Positions 20,704 through 57,300 of a DNA stretch of 64,000 nt are shown piece after piece. The position numbers and the translations under genes were made by a program. Source of the DNA: Podarcis pityusensis (lineage: Eukaryota); the NCBI GenBank assembly GCA_964106645.2, contig OZ067044.1; one strand, 5' to 3'. The notes beneath the pieces were generated by a model. That model was not told where the DNA came from, ran no database searches, and saw only the letters and a list, made by a program, of their open reading frames with translations. Position 1 is the first letter of the stretch, and every line of letters begins with the position of its first letter.

Positions 20704-20736
20704 ATGTCACTCCTTGCGAAAATGGGAGACTGGCAG
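20704..20736 (+). CDS. TFAP2A: TFAP2A distal alternative first coding exon (MSLLAKMGDWQ)
   Basis: ATGTCACTCCTTGCGAAAATGGGAGACTGGCAG|GTAACG, 11 codons, phase-0 donor. Matches the human alternative N-terminus MSILAKMGDWQ. Too short for the ORF track. Confidence 0.95.
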
Positions 20737-26143: not shown

Positions 26144-26194
26144 ATGAAAATGCTTTGGAAACTGACGGATAATATCAAATATGAGGAATGTGAG
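26144..26194 (+). CDS. TFAP2A: TFAP2A canonical first coding exon 1a (MKMLWKLTDNIKYEECE)
   Basis: ATG AAA ATG (starts at 26144 and 26150) ... TGT GAG|GTAAGC. Contains the IKYE SUMO consensus specific to this isoform. Confidence 0.98.
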
Positions 26195-28549
26195 GTAAGC
26201 GCTTTCCCGCGGCTGGGGCACACATCAGAGAGGATCTCCCGGTCCCCCGTCCTCCAATCCGTCCAGCCTTCCCCACTCCCGCTCCACCTAACAAACAAAC
26301 AGAAAACCCAGCTGTTTGGGGGAAGCACCTTGCAACAGCTAGCGATGCCGTTGGAAGACCAACTTCTGCGCTAGGCGACCGAGCAGACTTCGCAGCTGGA
26401 GAGAGGGCGTCTGTGGTGGGTTTATACCTGGGTGCCAGGTGGAGGAGGCTACGCGTTGAGGAAGGAAGGGGGTGCTTAGGCAGGGTGGGGGTGGGAGAAT
26501 CGACCTCCTCGGCCCAAGGAGACCAGAAGGAGATAGGAAGCGGGTGGGGTGGGAGGAGGAAGCCCAGGCAGATCTCTCCACCAGTGCTGAAACAGTTATT
26601 GAGGAGAGGAGGGGGAGAAGATGGAATGGATGAGTAAAACGAATGAATGAGGACGAGCGAAACGACCCTTCTGAGTCAGCAGAAGGAGCCCCAAGATGTC
26701 CTAAAGAGGTCTGCCCCGATAGAGGTCTTTTTGAGCTACAAGTTCTGCTGAGGCGCACTGAGCGACTTTTTTCTCTGGTTTGGACCGTTGTCACTTCCGC
26801 GTCAGATCTTGCTGGCTGCTCTTCTCCTCGCTCTCCTCAGCCAGTTGGTGAGGGTTTTAAGTACTTGCTGGGCTTTTAAGAGCACGCCTTTCAAACTCCA
26901 AAAGCCTCCTCGAAGGCTATTGGGAGATGCTCCTCGCACAGGTAGTGTGGAGGAGAGACAGAAGCAGACCAGGGGTGCCTTCTGCGCGCGGTGGCAGAGA
27001 AGATGCTTACTCGTTCCTTCGCTTTACAAGACTCTTGATATTTATTAGAGGTATATAAAATGTAACTAGAGATGATGTTGGAGGTAGATGGAGGAGACGG
27101 AGAGATGCATATATGTGATGTCTGATGTTGATTATTATTTTTTGAAAGCCAGAGAGATAGGTGCATAGACAGGCACAGATGGATAGGTTAAACCGCTAGG
27201 GTGACCTCAAGGATGCTTTTCAAATAAACGCATCTCAGAGTGGTTGTGTACAAGAGCTGTACTGTTGAATACTTTAAAATATTTGTTTCCCTGGTGGGAT
27301 TTGGTGCTTCAAAACTCTGTTTTGCAAGTCTTTCTTTTCTATCTCAATCCAACGGTTTGGTGAGCAACACATTATTTCTCTCTGCGCGCACACACAAACA
27401 CACACAAATACACGCACACTTCCTTAATTCTGTGCACAGAATAGAATCTGACAAGCGCCAGCCTGGAAGATTAATTAAGAAAACAAATGTGGGTTGGTGC
27501 TGAGATTTATGGCTCCTTTGGAGAGGCGAGCCTGTCTACAAATGTCAGAAACTGAGAGAAGGCGGCATGCAGATCTCATTCTCACTTTCTCTAAAGATGT
27601 GTGGTTCTCTCCCTCTTTTTCACCCACCCGTCCAGAAAAAAGCCGTTTTAGGACGAAAGCCTTTCGCTTCTCAGTGTCGAAGCGAAGTGCACGTGCGGTT
27701 GTGGATATGCTTGGAAATGGCTTGTGTTGCTTCACATGGAGCTGATAAACAAACCAATCCAGTGGTGAGGCTTCCAGAGCAGGCGAGGGTGGTGTGTTTG
27801 GAGAGCTGTGAGTGCTTAGGCGCGATTTTCTTCTGTTAAGAGAATGTATCGCTACGGTTAGGGCGGTGGCACAACGCTTGAAGCTGACTAGCAGCTCTTG
27901 AAATGGACTAGCAACGCAATCCTAGACGTGCGCGAAATCCTAGACATGCATGGAAGTAAAATGGGGTTTGCTCCCAGGTCACTCGGTGCAGAATTGCAGC
28001 TTATGGCTGCAGTGACACCCGCCCACTTACGCAGAAGTAAATCCCATTGATCCTAGTGGGATTCACTTCAGGTAAACATACATAATGTACTGAGTGCTCC
28101 AGAGTTCGGAGGAGATGGGCTTGATTTCAACTTTATTTCTAAAGTCTGTCTGTGTGCGGCAGCAGCTTCTGGAACGCGGTAGTGCTCTCCAGCTGGACTG
28201 AACTTGCTTCGGCGTTTGCTTAATGCGCTTGGCTTCGGATGGCGCCCCAAATCGCCCATGCAGCAATTTGGAGACATAAGCAATCGTAAGAGAGGGTGTT
28301 TCGGCGGTGAAGCTACAGTTCTCCTGCTTTTCTCTATATGGAAATAGAAAGTCGGGAGGTAACAGGCTTACAAAAGCTGAAGGTGCATGCTTCTCTCCCC
28401 GCCCCCCCCCCCTTATCCTTCTCCACTCGGCGAGGTGCGCTCTCAGGGAGTTTTGCAGGGACATGCTCGGTCGGCGGCAGAGCGCCTGTTGTTATGATAA
28501 GTCGGCAGCAGCAGCAGGAAAAGTGAAGCATGCCTGTCACCTCCCAGGA

Positions 28550-29450
28550 TTCACTGGCTGCGAGTTGCCCAGCCAGTTGAGCGGGTTGGGCCGAGCCTGG
28601 GAGCCCCAGCTTGTCCGGGCCAGCCAAGCGCCAGTCGCCTCCCTTTTTCTTTCCCTCCCCTCCCCCCCGACAGTCTTCACCACCCCTTTTCCACGATCCT
28701 CAGCCCCAAAGGGGGAAAAAAAGGGCTCCGCGGGGTTCCCGAGATAGCTCCGCCGCCCCGATTCCGGTCCCCTCCGCCGCCACAACCTCTGGGAGAACGG
28801 AGCTCCGAAAGGGCGGCGGAGATTCCACGCGCGGAGCAGGGAGGGCCCTTCCCCTCCAGCCCGGGGCTCCGGCGAGGCCCTGTTGCTGCCGCCGCCGCCT
28901 CGGGCCCTCGAGCCATGGACGTGACGCAGCAGGACGCCGCCGGAGCCGAGCCGCCAGGCCCAGGAGAACCGGGGCAGCTGAAAGGAGGCGGCGGCGCCGA
29001 GGCGGGCTCCTCCGAGAGCGGCTCCTCGCGGAGCAAGAGGGCAGCTGGAGACGCGCAGCTCTTGGCGCTGCCCTTCGACGGCGCGGCCTTCGCCCAGCCT
29101 CCGCCGCCCGAGGTGCGCCCTTCTTCGCTTCCCTGCCGCCCCAGGACCTTGCCTGGGCCTTAGCCGGCCTCCCTCGCTCCTTCCACGATTGCCCCACCGG
29201 GCCCAGGTCTCCTCTTCCCCTGCCTCCTCGCTGCGCTCCTCGTCGGGCCGTCTCTTCCCTCTCGCATCTTCCTTGTTCACTGCCTTCCTGCCTTCCCCTC
29301 TCAGTCTCTTTCTCTCTCTCCCCCCCCCCCGAGATTCCCCTGCTGCCCCCTCCCCAAGTTCACCCCAAGCCCCGGAACCCACCCGGGACCTTTTCCCCGG
29401 CCTGCCGCTTCTTTCCTTCCCTTTCCCACGCGCGCTGCCCGCTCCCTCCC
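28550..29450. promoter_or_regulatory. Dense CpG island between exon 1a and the proximal first exon
   Basis: Very high GC and CpG content, with (GCC)n runs. Confidence 0.85.
28915..29112 (+). CDS. TFAP2A: Candidate additional TFAP2A first coding exon (66 aa, MDVTQQ...FAQPPPPE)
   Basis: GCCATGG Kozak at 28912-28918, 66 open codons, then GAG|GTGCGC donor at a codon boundary, in phase with exon 2. Lies in a CpG island. No transcript evidence available. Confidence 0.5.
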
Positions 29451-29764
29451 TCTCTACTTACCCCTCTGCCCTTCCTTCTCCTATCCACTGGCCTTTCTTC
29501 TCTCTCTCTCTCCCCCCCCCCCCCGCCTGCCTGCCTGCTCCCACCCTCTTGCTTCTGCCTGGCTCTCTCTCTCTCTCTCTCTCTCTTCACTTCTTCATGC
29601 CCTACAACCTTTTAAAATGTTGCCCCTTTCCTGTGATTCGTCAGACGCGGCGGCGGCGGCGGCATGGCTCTCTCTCTCCCTCTCCCTCCCCCCCTCCCCT
29701 CGCTCTCTTTTTGTCTCTCCCTCTCTCTCGGTCCTCTCCCCCCCCTTCTCTCGCTCCCCCTCCC

Positions 29765-30128: not shown

Positions 30129-30516
30129 CTTTGCACCGCAATAGCACCGCCGGATCCGGCTCTCCCTCGCCTTTTTTTCGCCGCTGCAGATCGCCGGGCG
30201 TTTGGGTCAAGTTCTGATGGATTTGAGTCGCGCCGCGTCCCCAGTGCTGCTCGCGGACCAGCCTGGGCGTTGGGCACTCGGTGTAGTCACAGTCTAGACC
30301 TGGGCTTCTTCTCCTCCTTTTGTGCGTGTGTGTGAGTGTGTGAGAGAGGAGAGGAGAGGGCTAGGGAGAGCGCGCTGCTCGCGTGCGGGAGAGGCAGAGA
30401 GCAAGAGACGCAGGCAGCGCGAGAGAGCCCGACAGCCAGAGCTAAAAAGAGCCGACTTTTCTCTGCCTTTTTGTTTTTCTCCTGTGCCCTGACTTGGTCC
30501 CCCCGAATCCGCGCAG
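29765..30516 (+). promoter_or_regulatory. Proximal (MLVHSFSAM) first-exon promoter and leader
   Basis: A complex AT-rich block (29780-29930, with CRE-like GACGTCA) sits between pyrimidine tracts. (GA)n and (CA)n repeats and a CpG-rich leader follow. Confidence 0.6.
30026..30127 (+). repeat. (GA)n and (AC)n microsatellites upstream of the proximal first exon
   Basis: Direct reading. Confidence 0.9.
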
Positions 30517-30543
30517 ATGTTAGTTCACAGTTTCTCAGCGATG
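30517..30543 (+). CDS. TFAP2A: TFAP2A proximal alternative first coding exon (MLVHSFSAM)
   Basis: ATGTTAGTTCACAGTTTCTCAGCGATG|GTGAGT, 9 codons, phase 0. Identical to the mammalian alternative N-terminus. Confidence 0.96.
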
Positions 30544-31809: not shown

Positions 31810-32244
31810 GACCGTCACGATGGCACCAGCAACGGGACAGCCCGCCTACCCCAGTTGGGGAGCGTGGGCCAGTCGCCCTACACCAGCGCCCCACCGCTCT
31901 CCCACACCCCCAACGCTGACTTCCAGCCCCCCTACTTCCCGCCGCCGTACCAGCCCATCTACCCTCAGTCCCAAGACCCCTATTCCCACGTTAACGACCC
32001 CTATAGCTTGAACCCTCTTCACGCCCAGCCCCAACCCCAACACCCAGGCTGGCCGGGACAGAGACAGAACCAGGAAACGGGGCTTTTGCACACCCACCGA
32101 GGACTTCCGCACCAGCTCTCCGGCTTGGATCCGCGAAGGGATTACCGGCGGCATGAAGATCTATTGCACGGACCTCATGGCTTGAGCTCAGGACTAGGAG
32201 ACATCCCCATTCATTCGATACCTCACTCTTTAGAAGACGTACCG
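31810..32244 (+). CDS. TFAP2A: TFAP2A exon 2, Pro/Gln-rich transactivation domain with PY motif
   Basis: Polypyrimidine tract and CCCCAG|GAC acceptor. Encodes DRHDGTSNG...[10 protein letters not shown]...EDVP. Donor CCG|GTAAGG. 435 nt. Confidence 0.98.
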
Positions 32245-54330: not shown

Positions 54331-57300
54331 AGCGGAGGCATTTGCGCAGCACTGCTTGATCGCTCATCCATTATGTGACTGGTATTTACAACAAGCCTGC
54401 GAGGTAGGTCCGTTATTTTTGTATCGCCATATTACAGCCAAAGGAGTCAAGGCTGCGAGATAACCATTTGTCCAAGGCTTATCTAGTGAATAAGTCGAGA
54501 TTTGGACCACAGGCTTCTGCCGCAGCTCTCCATTAGCCTCCTCATAAGAAACGCAGTTTGCAGCAGCAACAACATCTGGCTAGATCGCCCATACAGACAA
54601 AGCAGCCCACGCGTCGGGCTTACGAATCCATCACACTATCAACTCGTTTGCACGCTTTTCTACTGGCCGGGGCCCCGGCTGATCTCTTCCTCTGTATGGA
54701 TCTCATCACCTCCATCTCTTCGCGCCGTCATCCGCCCAGCCAGCCCTGCTCTTTCGGGATGGAAGGGGCCTCCGCGACGAAGCGTCATTATCCATCACTC
54801 CCGCTTGCCTAACGTGTCCAAAGAATAATCAGGTTAGACAAGTGCTGGAAAACCAACATCTGCTCCCCTTCCCACCCCCAGTTAAAGCCCCTTCCCCTTT
54901 ATCTGCCCATTATAGGGGGAGAAGCCGGCGAGTCTTGGGCGCAGGGGTCAGGGCCATAAAGCAGAAACAGATCGTTAGATCACGACTTTGGGGGGGGGGG
55001 GAGCGCCGGGCATGACAAAGGACTTTCCATCATCATCGCCGCTGCTGCTGGAGTTGCGACTGGAAGCGAAGAGGTTCGGGATTATTAATCGCCCCCCCTT
55101 CTCTCTCTCTCTCGCTCCCCCCCCAAAAAACCAGCACCCTTCCACCATTCAGAGGTGAGATGTTTCTCGCTGCAGAATAGTCTCCATCCCATTCCCTCGC
55201 ACCTGATTTCTTACTACAAGCTAGAGGAGGAGGAGGAGTAGAAGGACCGAGAGGAGGACTTCTTGATCGTTTCCGTGAGTCACGCTCGGTGGCTCCCGTT
55301 TAAAGAATGGAAAACAGCCCCCCTTGAAAGAGAAGACTGGACCGTGTGCTTGTGTGTGTGTGTGTTTCCCACTGGCACGCCTAAAATTCTAGGAGAAGCG
55401 AACGGCTATTCTGACTCAACCTCGCTTCACCCGAATTAGCTGCTCTTTTGAACGTTCAGAAATGCTCCGGAAATCCCTCCGAGGAACAAACATTCCCCCC
55501 CGCTCCATCTCATTTCCCCAGAACGATGGGATCCAGATCCCAGTCCTCATTCGTGCTTTTGAACACTGAACCACCAGGCACGTCAGTTATTTCGAATAAA
55601 CGAATCCGGAGTCAGATAGCTTACGTGGGGGGGGGGGGGCGACAAGAATCCTGGAATCGGTTTGCACAGGATTTGCCCAGCCGTTTTTGGAGAAAGGTGC
55701 ACGAAGCTGTGTATAAACAACGTGATTTGTTTCGCGAAGCCAGCGAAACCAGCAAGTTCGAAACAGTGTTTCTTCTCCGTACGCAGTAAATTAAATAATG
55801 TTGCTTATTTCATTCCCGCCGCACCCCTCGTACCCCCGGGAGCCTCCAGTCCTAACTATGGGTGCAATTACACACCCCACGGTCGACTTAAACCGGAGCT
55901 GGACTCGCTTTGAGCCTCTTCTGTTATTCCCAGGGCTGCAACCCACTGAGCTCAGTGCGACTTCCTTCAGAGTAAAAATGCGCCAGGATCAGTGGTGCAT
56001 GTCGTTTTCGGTTCGAAATTTCGATTTCACAAGTCTATGGATCCAGCCAAACACCCCTCCCTCCCTTAATATGCTGGGGCTAACAATCTTGCCCGCACCC
56101 CTCTCGAAATAGGTCCCCTGTGATGCAGAATGGTTGGGTTGGGGGTGGGGTCAATGCCATAAACTCTCTGCGCACAACAAGATTAGATCGCAGCATCTCT
56201 GGCAGGTTAGTCTATTTTTAGTGGTCGGCGTGCCTCGTGGCCCAGATTGCTTTCGCTCCATAGATTATGTCAAAGCACTCTGCCCTCCATCCTAGGGTAC
56301 CGCTGCTCAGCGGCACAGCTCACCTTCTTGATGCAGGAATTCCCAGAGCCTGTCCTTAACATCTTCAATTCAAAGGACAGGGTGGTGCCGTTGAGCCTCG
56401 CCTGAGACGCTGGAGAATTGCAGCCAGTTCAAGTAGGCTATGCATAACAGCCTGACTTGCGACAAGGTAGGCGAATGTCGTGAAGGATTTGGGTCGCCGG
56501 ATTCAGTCTTTAGTGAAATCTACTGTCGGACAGAGAGGGTGCAGCAGGTGCAGCATGGACCAGCTCATGCCCGAAGGTCAAATAAAGACCCAACACCATT
56601 CGCACCTAAGGAAACAGGACTTTTTACATGGTCCAAGCCTATTTCATTCTCTTTGTGCTGCATCTAAAAGAAGAAAACCATCAGCACGCTTAATTTTGAA
56701 CAGGAAATGGCCTTTATAGAACCTTTTCTTTAATGTCTCGGAGAAAAACAAGGTCTGGAAAATAGCCGGGCTGTAGATACTTTTAGAAACGTGTTTGATT
56801 TATTTAATCATAAGCCCTAGAAGAAGGAAGAACTTCAGAGATCCCCTACTTAGAACTACAGAATCTCTGAAAATTTTCTTAGACTGCACTCTGCATTACC
56901 TCAAACCTTACATTACATTAAGATTATTTTTAAAAGTTTTTTTTAAAATAGATTTTTCATTGTATACAAAGAGTGAAATAAACTTAATATGTATGTTTAA
57001 AAAATTATATTTTGGGGGGAAAACCCCACCCGCCAAACTTAAATCATCGTGATACTTACATTTGTAAACTATTGTTCTAATAAGGATGCACAGGAACTTT
57101 GGATATCTTACTTTTATTCCAAGCAATCAAGTACAGGAGAAAGATTTCTCAAAGATGAACTCAATGAGTTCAATGAGACCGAATCCCTAGTTACATCTTT
57201 AACGTGAGCAGCAATCCAGCCAAAACGAAGTCCTAGAAAACCTTATTGATTTTAATGGAAGTGTTAAATTTCTGCCATTGAAATCAGTGGGACTGGAAGG

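Follow-up and report, generated by a model that had tools for sequence, protein, structure and literature searches.

A fourth coding first exon of TFAP2A in Podarcis pityusensis and its likely counterparts, human exon 1d and Xenopus S3

TFAP2A of the lizard Podarcis pityusensis has, besides its three recognised coding first exons, a fourth one of 66 codons, and we hold with high confidence that this exon is real. TFAP2A is a core regulator of the neural crest and the epidermis and the gene of branchio-oculo-facial syndrome. The exon had been proposed as a candidate in an initial annotation of the sequence, and it is now supported by four junction reads in a close relative and by orthologues across vertebrates. 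The exon as such is not new: it is present in automatic annotations, which limits the novelty, and it has twice appeared in print under different names (1d and S3). What seems to be new is the link between 1d, S3, and the lizard exon, the age that this link implies, and the rewriting of the tail in placentals. We regard as very probable the explanation as a whole, namely, that a sense-transcribed, in-frame fourth coding exon, orthologous to 1d and S3, would give rise to a weaker, promoter-selective AP-2alpha.

Exon structure of the locus

The window, i.e., the whole stretch of 64,000 nucleotides that was analysed, contains TFAP2A complete on the plus strand. The first exons and exon 2 were positioned by motif search and reading, and exon names follow PMC3219183. 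The coding part of exon 1c (11 aa) lies at 20704-20736, that of exon 1a (15 to 17 aa, with the IKYE SUMO site) at 26144/26150-26194, and that of exon 1b (9 aa, with an AG acceptor directly 5' of the ATG) at 30517-30543. Exon 2 (31810-32244) is the common acceptor exon; it begins cag|GAC at 31810, as read from the sequence and from the continuation of the X23 reads described below. Exons 3 to 7 lie at 35967-36018, 38975-39206, 41370-41488, 45918-46059, and 48053-48341 (span 35967-48341). Exons 2 to 7 encode 422 aa, of which 420 are identical to the Rhineura model.

The coding part of the fourth first exon lies at 28915-29112 on the plus strand. Its ATG at 28915 stands in GAGCCATGG, in a Kozak-type context (28912-28918), and is followed by 66 open codons that end in GAG|GTGCGC after 29112, with the phase-0 donor GTGCGC at 29113-29118. 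The start, the peptide, and the donor at a codon boundary had all been correctly read in the initial annotation. Exons 1c, 1a, and 1b also end on codon boundaries; the phase is therefore the one that had been claimed, and splicing to 31810 indeed gives 488 aa (66 aa plus the 422 aa of exons 2 to 7). The ATG at 28915 is the sole one in any frame at 28531-29112. A frame of 16 codons that starts with an upstream ATG lies at 28530-28580 and is closed by a stop there, 5' of most read starts. The matching frame stays open into the exon in the snake model P0005 and in the skink-like contig P0002.

Like 1a, 1b, and 1c, the fourth exon is an alternative coding first exon with a phase-0 donor onto exon 2. 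The three recognised exons supply 9 to 17 nearly invariant residues, whereas the fourth supplies about 35 to 77 fast-evolving residues from the CpG-richest part of the locus. The core of the CpG island, at 28701-29200, holds 59 CpG at 73% GC, more CpG than any other 500-base segment of the 64 kb, in agreement with its earlier description as the densest island of the locus. We infer that this island is the likely promoter of the fourth exon itself.

The bare pattern of a purine-NN-ATGG start, 50 to 120 open codons, and AG|GT was found in 51 of 300 blockwise shuffles of the 11-kb region from exon 1c to exon 2 and in 21 of 2000 shuffles of the CpG island. Since the pattern is near chance, the case for the exon rests on reads and orthologues. 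By DNA and peptide search, the exon is single-copy in the genome; no paralogous copy was found (next matches with E above 2) within the reach of these searches, which a diverged paralogue would escape. The sole further purine-NN-ATGG frame in the window of at least 50 codons ending in AG|GT begins at 55526 on the plus strand (57 codons), near a small CpG-rich patch downstream of TFAP2A.

Transcription and splicing in relatives

The RNA came from relatives of the window's own species. Four of the 24 listed runs were aligned to the stretch 28200-29480, outside which exon 2 lies. Raw paired RNA-seq reads from a close relative make up X23; about 12% of the run was sampled and 60 reads were aligned. 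The DNA runs of that relative contain 0.59 of the words, versus 0.94 for the best-matching organism. X9 comprises contigs from a second organism, and its status as RNA is a guess.

In the close relative, a sense transcript is spliced from the donor to exon 2. Four X23 reads pass the donor and run on behind 29113 for 9 letters. After a G common to the intron and exon 2, these letters agree with the beginning of exon 2 at 8 positions and disagree at the ninth. Among the X9 contigs, one of 664 nt has its end at 29112; another, 57 nt long, follows the reference over 29083-29112 and departs from it beyond the donor. Junction reads had been named as a check on the proposed exon: the four sense reads continue into exon 2 letters, and the X9 contigs break at the same donor. 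For every X23 read over 28501-29274, the first mate lies on the minus strand, the orientation that sense RNA gives in most stranded libraries. X23 depth climbs from 0.3 to 3.8-12.5 over 28673-28801 with no sharp start, and one read or pair extends to about 28500; the 5' untranslated part is thus placed only approximately, at 28673-28914. Depth is 6 to 7 across the coding part and 1.4 in the bin spanning the donor.

Over most of the coding part, X1 and X5 contigs are missing, and some intron coverage is present in X5 and X23. At 28200-28440, in the intron 5' of the island, X1 (1.9 kb, depth 27), X5, and X9 all have contigs, and the stranded X23 reads are almost absent; the source could be RNA that is unspliced or, as is known from the human locus, antisense. 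One X9 contig has a 43-nt loose end before 28833; compared by eye, this end differs from the ends of both exon 1a and exon 1c and probably derives from another locus.

Between the relatives and the window, the coding part differs by 8 listed substitutions (4 synonymous and 4 nonsynonymous, with three substitution rows not displayed) and 0 indels, and the upstream part has 7 indel sites. Frameshifts or loss of the ATG or donor in relatives would have spoken against the exon; no indel is among the differences listed for the coding part, and the donor is used. Pooled dN/dS is 0.36 (4 synonymous changes over 52 sites and 4 nonsynonymous over 146), which is not significantly below 1 (Fisher p 0.21).

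Homologues among vertebrates

With the 66-aa peptide alone as the query, 1 protein out of 409 candidates was recovered: a model from Lerista in which this exon is joined to exon 2. After two broader searches and a look-up of clusters, the set comprised 167 proteins, nearly all of them TFAP2A models. By a hand-made list, a matching first exon is present in 63 of these: 6 squamate, 2 turtle, 10 bird, 4 marsupial, 14 placental, 19 frog, 1 salamander (axolotl), 1 coelacanth, and 6 ray-finned fish. The carriers are gene models and assembled contigs, with a few unspliced read-throughs and some records from the same species, and 4 were grouped by similarity. No exon-carrying record of a rodent, monotreme, crocodilian, zebrafish, or shark was seen among the cluster representatives searched; because the searches display such representatives, the absence of a group says little. 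Two teleost sequences were inside the query alignment, which makes the recovery of their relatives partly circular.

Whether the exon was already annotated in some species had been left open, and the answer is yes. It is found in public predicted isoforms of many species, such as the squamate Rhineura (X3, P0088, 483 aa), Lepidochelys (X5, P0004), Latimeria (X2, P0115), Megalops (X1, P0129), and chimpanzee (isoform 12, P0083). They join the same exon to exon 2, either directly or by way of 1b. These models are automatic, with no name or function attached, and many have upstream in-frame extensions that the window lacks. The route via 1b is seen in P0005, P0007, P0072, P0079, P0117, P0118, and P0130, which places the exon upstream of 1b in snake, bird, gecko, anole, and marsupials. 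The start (mostly M-D/E), phase, and slot are common to the orthologues, and nearly all keep their own ATG. Peptide length ranges from about 35 to 77 aa, with runs of Gly, Ala, and Gln.

Several models deviate from this form. In the bird models P0006-P0008, P0010, P0017, and P0099-P0103, the frame reaches about 80 codons further 5', to a common start Met-Leu-Leu-, and the downstream Met-Asp-Gly is the counterpart of the lizard start; the grouse model P0161 has a shorter, different upstream extension. Anolis sagrei P0117 has a strongly acidic exon (net -15, with a Glu run) that has lost the aromatic motif pattern, and its upstream element matches the window. In pangolin P0158, the placental exon is, by eye, apparently read in a shifted frame from an upstream ATG, which suggests that the usual ATG and the donor do not share a frame in this species. 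In sturgeon P0153, only the first 24 exon residues are joined to exon 2, which suggests an earlier donor or a model error.

The peptides closest to that of the window are those of Lerista (43/59 identical) and Rhineura (42/61). No shuffle out of 1000 reached the score of the window against turtle (27/63 identical) or ibis (24/43), of turtle against wombat (31/64), or of coelacanth against Xenopus, Bombina, tarpon (27/55), or sturgeon (14/24). Frog peptides are 37-42/52 identical across deep frog lineages (Ascaphus versus Lithobates, 42/52). Weaker links, with the number of shuffles per 1000 reaching the score, were turtle-coelacanth (2), wombat-mink (4), wombat-frog (5), wombat-coelacanth (6), window-coelacanth (11), and wombat-chimpanzee (24). 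The pairs window-wombat (86), tarpon-Caranx (222), and axolotl-wombat (416) were not significant.

Profiles were compared with 40 shuffles each. The sauropsid profile scored 32.8 against the marsupial one (shuffle maximum 17.7), and the marsupial profile scored 23.3 against the placental one (shuffle maximum 15.4). Non-placental amniotes against frogs and coelacanth gave a modest 15.0 (shuffle maximum 11.2; 0/40 reached the score). Sauropsid versus placental was not significant (8/40), nor were the teleost comparisons, the one between percomorphs and frog/coelacanth being weak (3/40). Between the lizard and placental peptides, no direct similarity was found (z -0.5). The best back-translated alignment of placental and marsupial sequences was in frame, with a z of 6.2 (25 shuffles). 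A frameshift origin of the Arg-rich placental tail was considered and ruled out, as the marsupial alignment is wholly in frame over placental residues 5-47; the last 13 residues are unaligned.

Matching of the upstream extensions to the window at the protein level was dropped: it was significant for squamate records only, with placentals at best at 2/100 shuffles. Its place was taken by a 24-mer (two variants) fixed from two reading frames of one stretch in the placental upstream extensions. The best match of the 24-mer on both strands of the 64 kb is 20/24, at 28562, compared with 17/24 elsewhere and a maximum of 18 in 30 shuffles. This conserved upstream element (28562-28585, plus strand), likely promoter-proximal, lies 353 nt 5' of the lizard ATG; in placentals, it lies 216-243 nt 5' of the ATG. 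Homology between the lizard and placental exons is traced indirectly, through the marsupials and this 24-mer. Orthology of the tarpon, sturgeon, and coelacanth exons would put the origin of the exon in the bony vertebrate ancestor, some 430 million years ago, and on these peptide comparisons such an age is likely.

Isoforms 1d and S3, possible function, and alternative readings

In the accessible text of PMC3219183, human exon 1d lies between 1a and 1b, encodes 60 aa, and splices to exon 2. Three ESTs are given there, one of them correctly spliced, and 1d is described as primate-only in conservation and as probably no true isoform. Transcript levels were very low in breast, none could be detected in foetal eye, and the protein, too, went undetected. 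In reporter assays in the same text, 1d bound DNA (an AP-2 site) as the other isoforms do, showed no response to CBP with a synthetic reporter, was the most potent ERBB2 activator among the isoforms, and repressed the cyclin D3 promoter by up to 50% without an IKYE site. A SUMO band was obtained for isoform 1a only.

The lizard exon shares with human 1d the slot between 1a and 1b (26194 < 28915 < 30517), a long N-terminus without IKYE, and splicing to exon 2. The placental peptides are exactly 60 aa in 9 of the 10 compared, the same length as human 1d, and by this length and their occurrence in primates we infer that they represent human 1d. The tails differ: placentals have a basic one, rich in Arg, that mostly lacks lysine and does not have the aromatic motif; the lizard has an acidic one (net -5) with both lysine and motif. 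The published 1d qPCR primer fits the chimpanzee-type sequence (P0083) near the exon end with 2 mismatches. Such a mismatch, if real, could have led to under-counting of 1d; with chimpanzee as a proxy, the fit is not above chance (39/200 shuffles equal it).

For Xenopus laevis Tfap2alpha, the accessible parts of PMC13189808 and of its preprint (10.1101/2024.08.18.608474) describe an isoform S3 with a third start site, downstream of S2, that differs by 52 aa and has H3K4me3 and reporter activity of its own. Its level in cranial neural crest is given as 0.8, versus 1 for S1 and 0.9 for S2. According to PMC13189808, as far as available, S3 is repressed by Adam13 and rises upon Adam13 loss, fails to activate calpain8, and rescues migration partially (from 53% to 66%, versus 81% with S1). 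The S3 residues are quoted there as 15-SDMKS-19. The X. laevis record P0086 is 52 aa long, and its residues 15-19 exactly equal this motif; by this identity of length and motif, S3 is the 52-aa frog exon P0086. S3 shares with the lizard exon the phase, the central lysine, a basic Ser-Lys-Arg stretch, and the aromatic motif; it is shorter and less Gly/Ala-rich, and direct peptide similarity is weak. In the parts seen, the authors compared S3 with the SUMO-bearing human isoform 1a, not 1d, and PMC13189808 attached to S3 the human cyclin D3/SUMO result that PMC3219183 had obtained on isoform 1a. Orthology of the lizard exon with both human 1d and Xenopus S3 appears highly likely.

Two features recur in the tail. 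Of the 49 non-placental records, 46 have a central K[GSAN], as does 1 of the 14 placental ones; in the lizard, this is Lys23 (28981-28983), kept in most non-placental orthologues, whose frog counterpart is Lys18 in one alignment and Lys20 in another. A hydrophobic-aromatic motif at residues 49-61 (29059-29097), just 5' of the exon 2 junction, is present in tarpon, coelacanth, frogs, most squamates, turtles, birds, and marsupials. It was not found in 10 of 10 placental peptides, axolotl, Anolis, or percomorphs; one version of the search pattern misses the marsupial form, and the other detects it. The initial annotation had called the isoform SUMO-free. This is consistent with the absence of the [IVL]-K-x-E consensus from the first exon in 45 of 45 peptides and with the SUMO band for 1a only (PMC3219183); against it stands a non-consensus lysine in the S3 exon named as a putative SUMO site in the accessible part of 10.1101/2024.08.18.608474. 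Since 1d repressed cyclin D3 without IKYE, the lack of IKYE does not imply a lack of repression. The 66-aa tail is of low complexity, adjoins the Pro/Tyr-rich activation region of exon 2, and is likely disordered; a single-sequence structure prediction of the Rhineura isoform was uninformative (mean pLDDT 41).

In the mechanism that we propose, the island promoter would start a transcript whose 66-codon exon is spliced in frame to exon 2, giving a 488-aa AP-2alpha. Beside the Pro/Tyr-rich activation region, the tail could alter co-factor recruitment through the aromatic motif and the central lysine and would leave DNA binding and dimerisation unaltered, so a promoter switch would retune AP-2alpha output at shared target sites. 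By analogy with 1d and S3, we lean slightly towards an isoform that would bind the same sites and partners but recruit co-activators differently, with promoter choice retuning AP-2alpha output. Both studied orthologues, human 1d and Xenopus S3, act as weak or promoter-selective activators, and on that analogy the fourth isoform is probably a weaker, promoter-selective form of AP-2alpha. The functional data on 1d and S3 are overexpression assays, and the human tail is strongly unlike that of the lizard.

An alternative accepts the exon as real and old and assigns the importance to its promoter, with the peptide a tolerated passenger and constraint acting on the ATG, frame, and donor only. The variable length with its Gly, Ala, and Gln runs, the very different Arg-rich placental version, the other frame (by eye) of pangolin P0158, the 24 aa kept in sturgeon P0153, and a close-relative dN/dS not significantly below 1 would all fit a passenger. 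A passenger accords poorly with the identity among frogs of deep lineages and between coelacanth and tarpon, or with an aromatic motif and lysine that persist across groups; Xenopus S1 and S3, which differ in the tail only, also behave differently in the assays reported in the accessible text of PMC13189808. We consider this alternative unlikely, though the least so of those discussed here. An independent origin of placental 1d, or of the frog/fish exon, in the same GC-rich island is improbable. It would explain why lizard and placental peptides have no direct similarity and why percomorph peptides match frog/coelacanth weakly, and the recovery of teleosts was partly circular; against it stand significant chains from lizard through turtle and marsupial to placental and from marsupial/turtle through coelacanth to tarpon, the upstream 24-mer common to placentals and lizard, and the same start, phase, and slot.

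Two further possibilities concern the transcript, and we give each of them very little credence. The island might mainly promote antisense or read-through RNA (cf. HIPSTR and TFAP2A-AS1), the spliced reads being leaky noise. CpG-island antisense RNAs are described for the human TFAP2A locus, and their promoter marks are conserved in amniotes (PMC5015059, in the part accessible); contigs of X1, X5, and X9 extend over the upstream intron. Against this, the X23 reads over the exon are all of the sense type for the usual library design, most depth stops at the donor, and S3 is nearly as abundant as S1 and S2 in the available Xenopus neural crest data. Alternatively, the exon might be an internal cassette reached from exon 1a or 1c, as the upstream segment joined to it in two mammalian models (P0011 and P0028) and the X9 contig stretching back to 28466 could indicate. 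This is at odds with the ramp of X23 depth over about 130 nt with no 5'-side loose ends listed, with the retention of its own ATG in nearly all orthologues, and with the start site, H3K4me3, and reporter activity reported for S3 in the accessible parts of PMC13189808 and 10.1101/2024.08.18.608474.

The preferred reading, a fourth coding first exon orthologous to 1d and S3, bears on earlier work. In the openly searchable literature, a scope outside which subscription papers fall, including the mouse and sheep isoform papers cited in PMC3219183, only PMC3219183 was found to name a TFAP2A isoform 1d or exon 1d, and S3 was found only in PMC13189808 and the preprint 10.1101/2024.08.18.608474. No openly searchable paper, in the parts that are accessible, was found to link 1d with S3, and 1d was not found in the accessible parts of PMC3424553, PMC5392957, PMC6418405, and PMC5015059. 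Three TFAP2A isoforms are given in the available part of a 2016 paper, and three N-termini in the UniProt table of a 2019 review. If 1d, S3, and the lizard exon are one ancient exon, the verdict on 1d as primate-only and probably not real needs revision, as does the printed equation of S3 with the human SUMO-repressor isoform, and the Xenopus results would give 1d a developmental role that is directly testable. The placental rewriting of the tail, if true, would illustrate clearly how an old exon can acquire a new peptide with its frame kept.

Tentatively, and at somewhat less than an even chance, we extend this to an AP-2alpha with four N-terminal isoforms, instead of three, from the bony vertebrate ancestor onwards. 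In the fourth, the aromatic motif, together with a modifiable lysine, would serve as a damper or redirector in neural crest and skin; placentals would have kept the promoter, the frame, and a 60-aa length and rewritten the tail as Arg-rich. Human 1d would then be real and overlooked, and the Xenopus switch from S1 to S3 would be one from 1c to 1d, misread as involving 1a.

A separate observation concerns exon 1b. None of the listed X23, X1, X5, and X9 read ends over 28200-29480 indicated its use as a cassette. At 30514-30543, an AG directly before its ATG means that it can act as an internal 9-codon cassette. Gene models join 1a-1b-2 in lacertids, Elgaria, Anolis, Pogona, and a curlew and join 1d-1b-2 in snake, gecko, crane, and marsupials.
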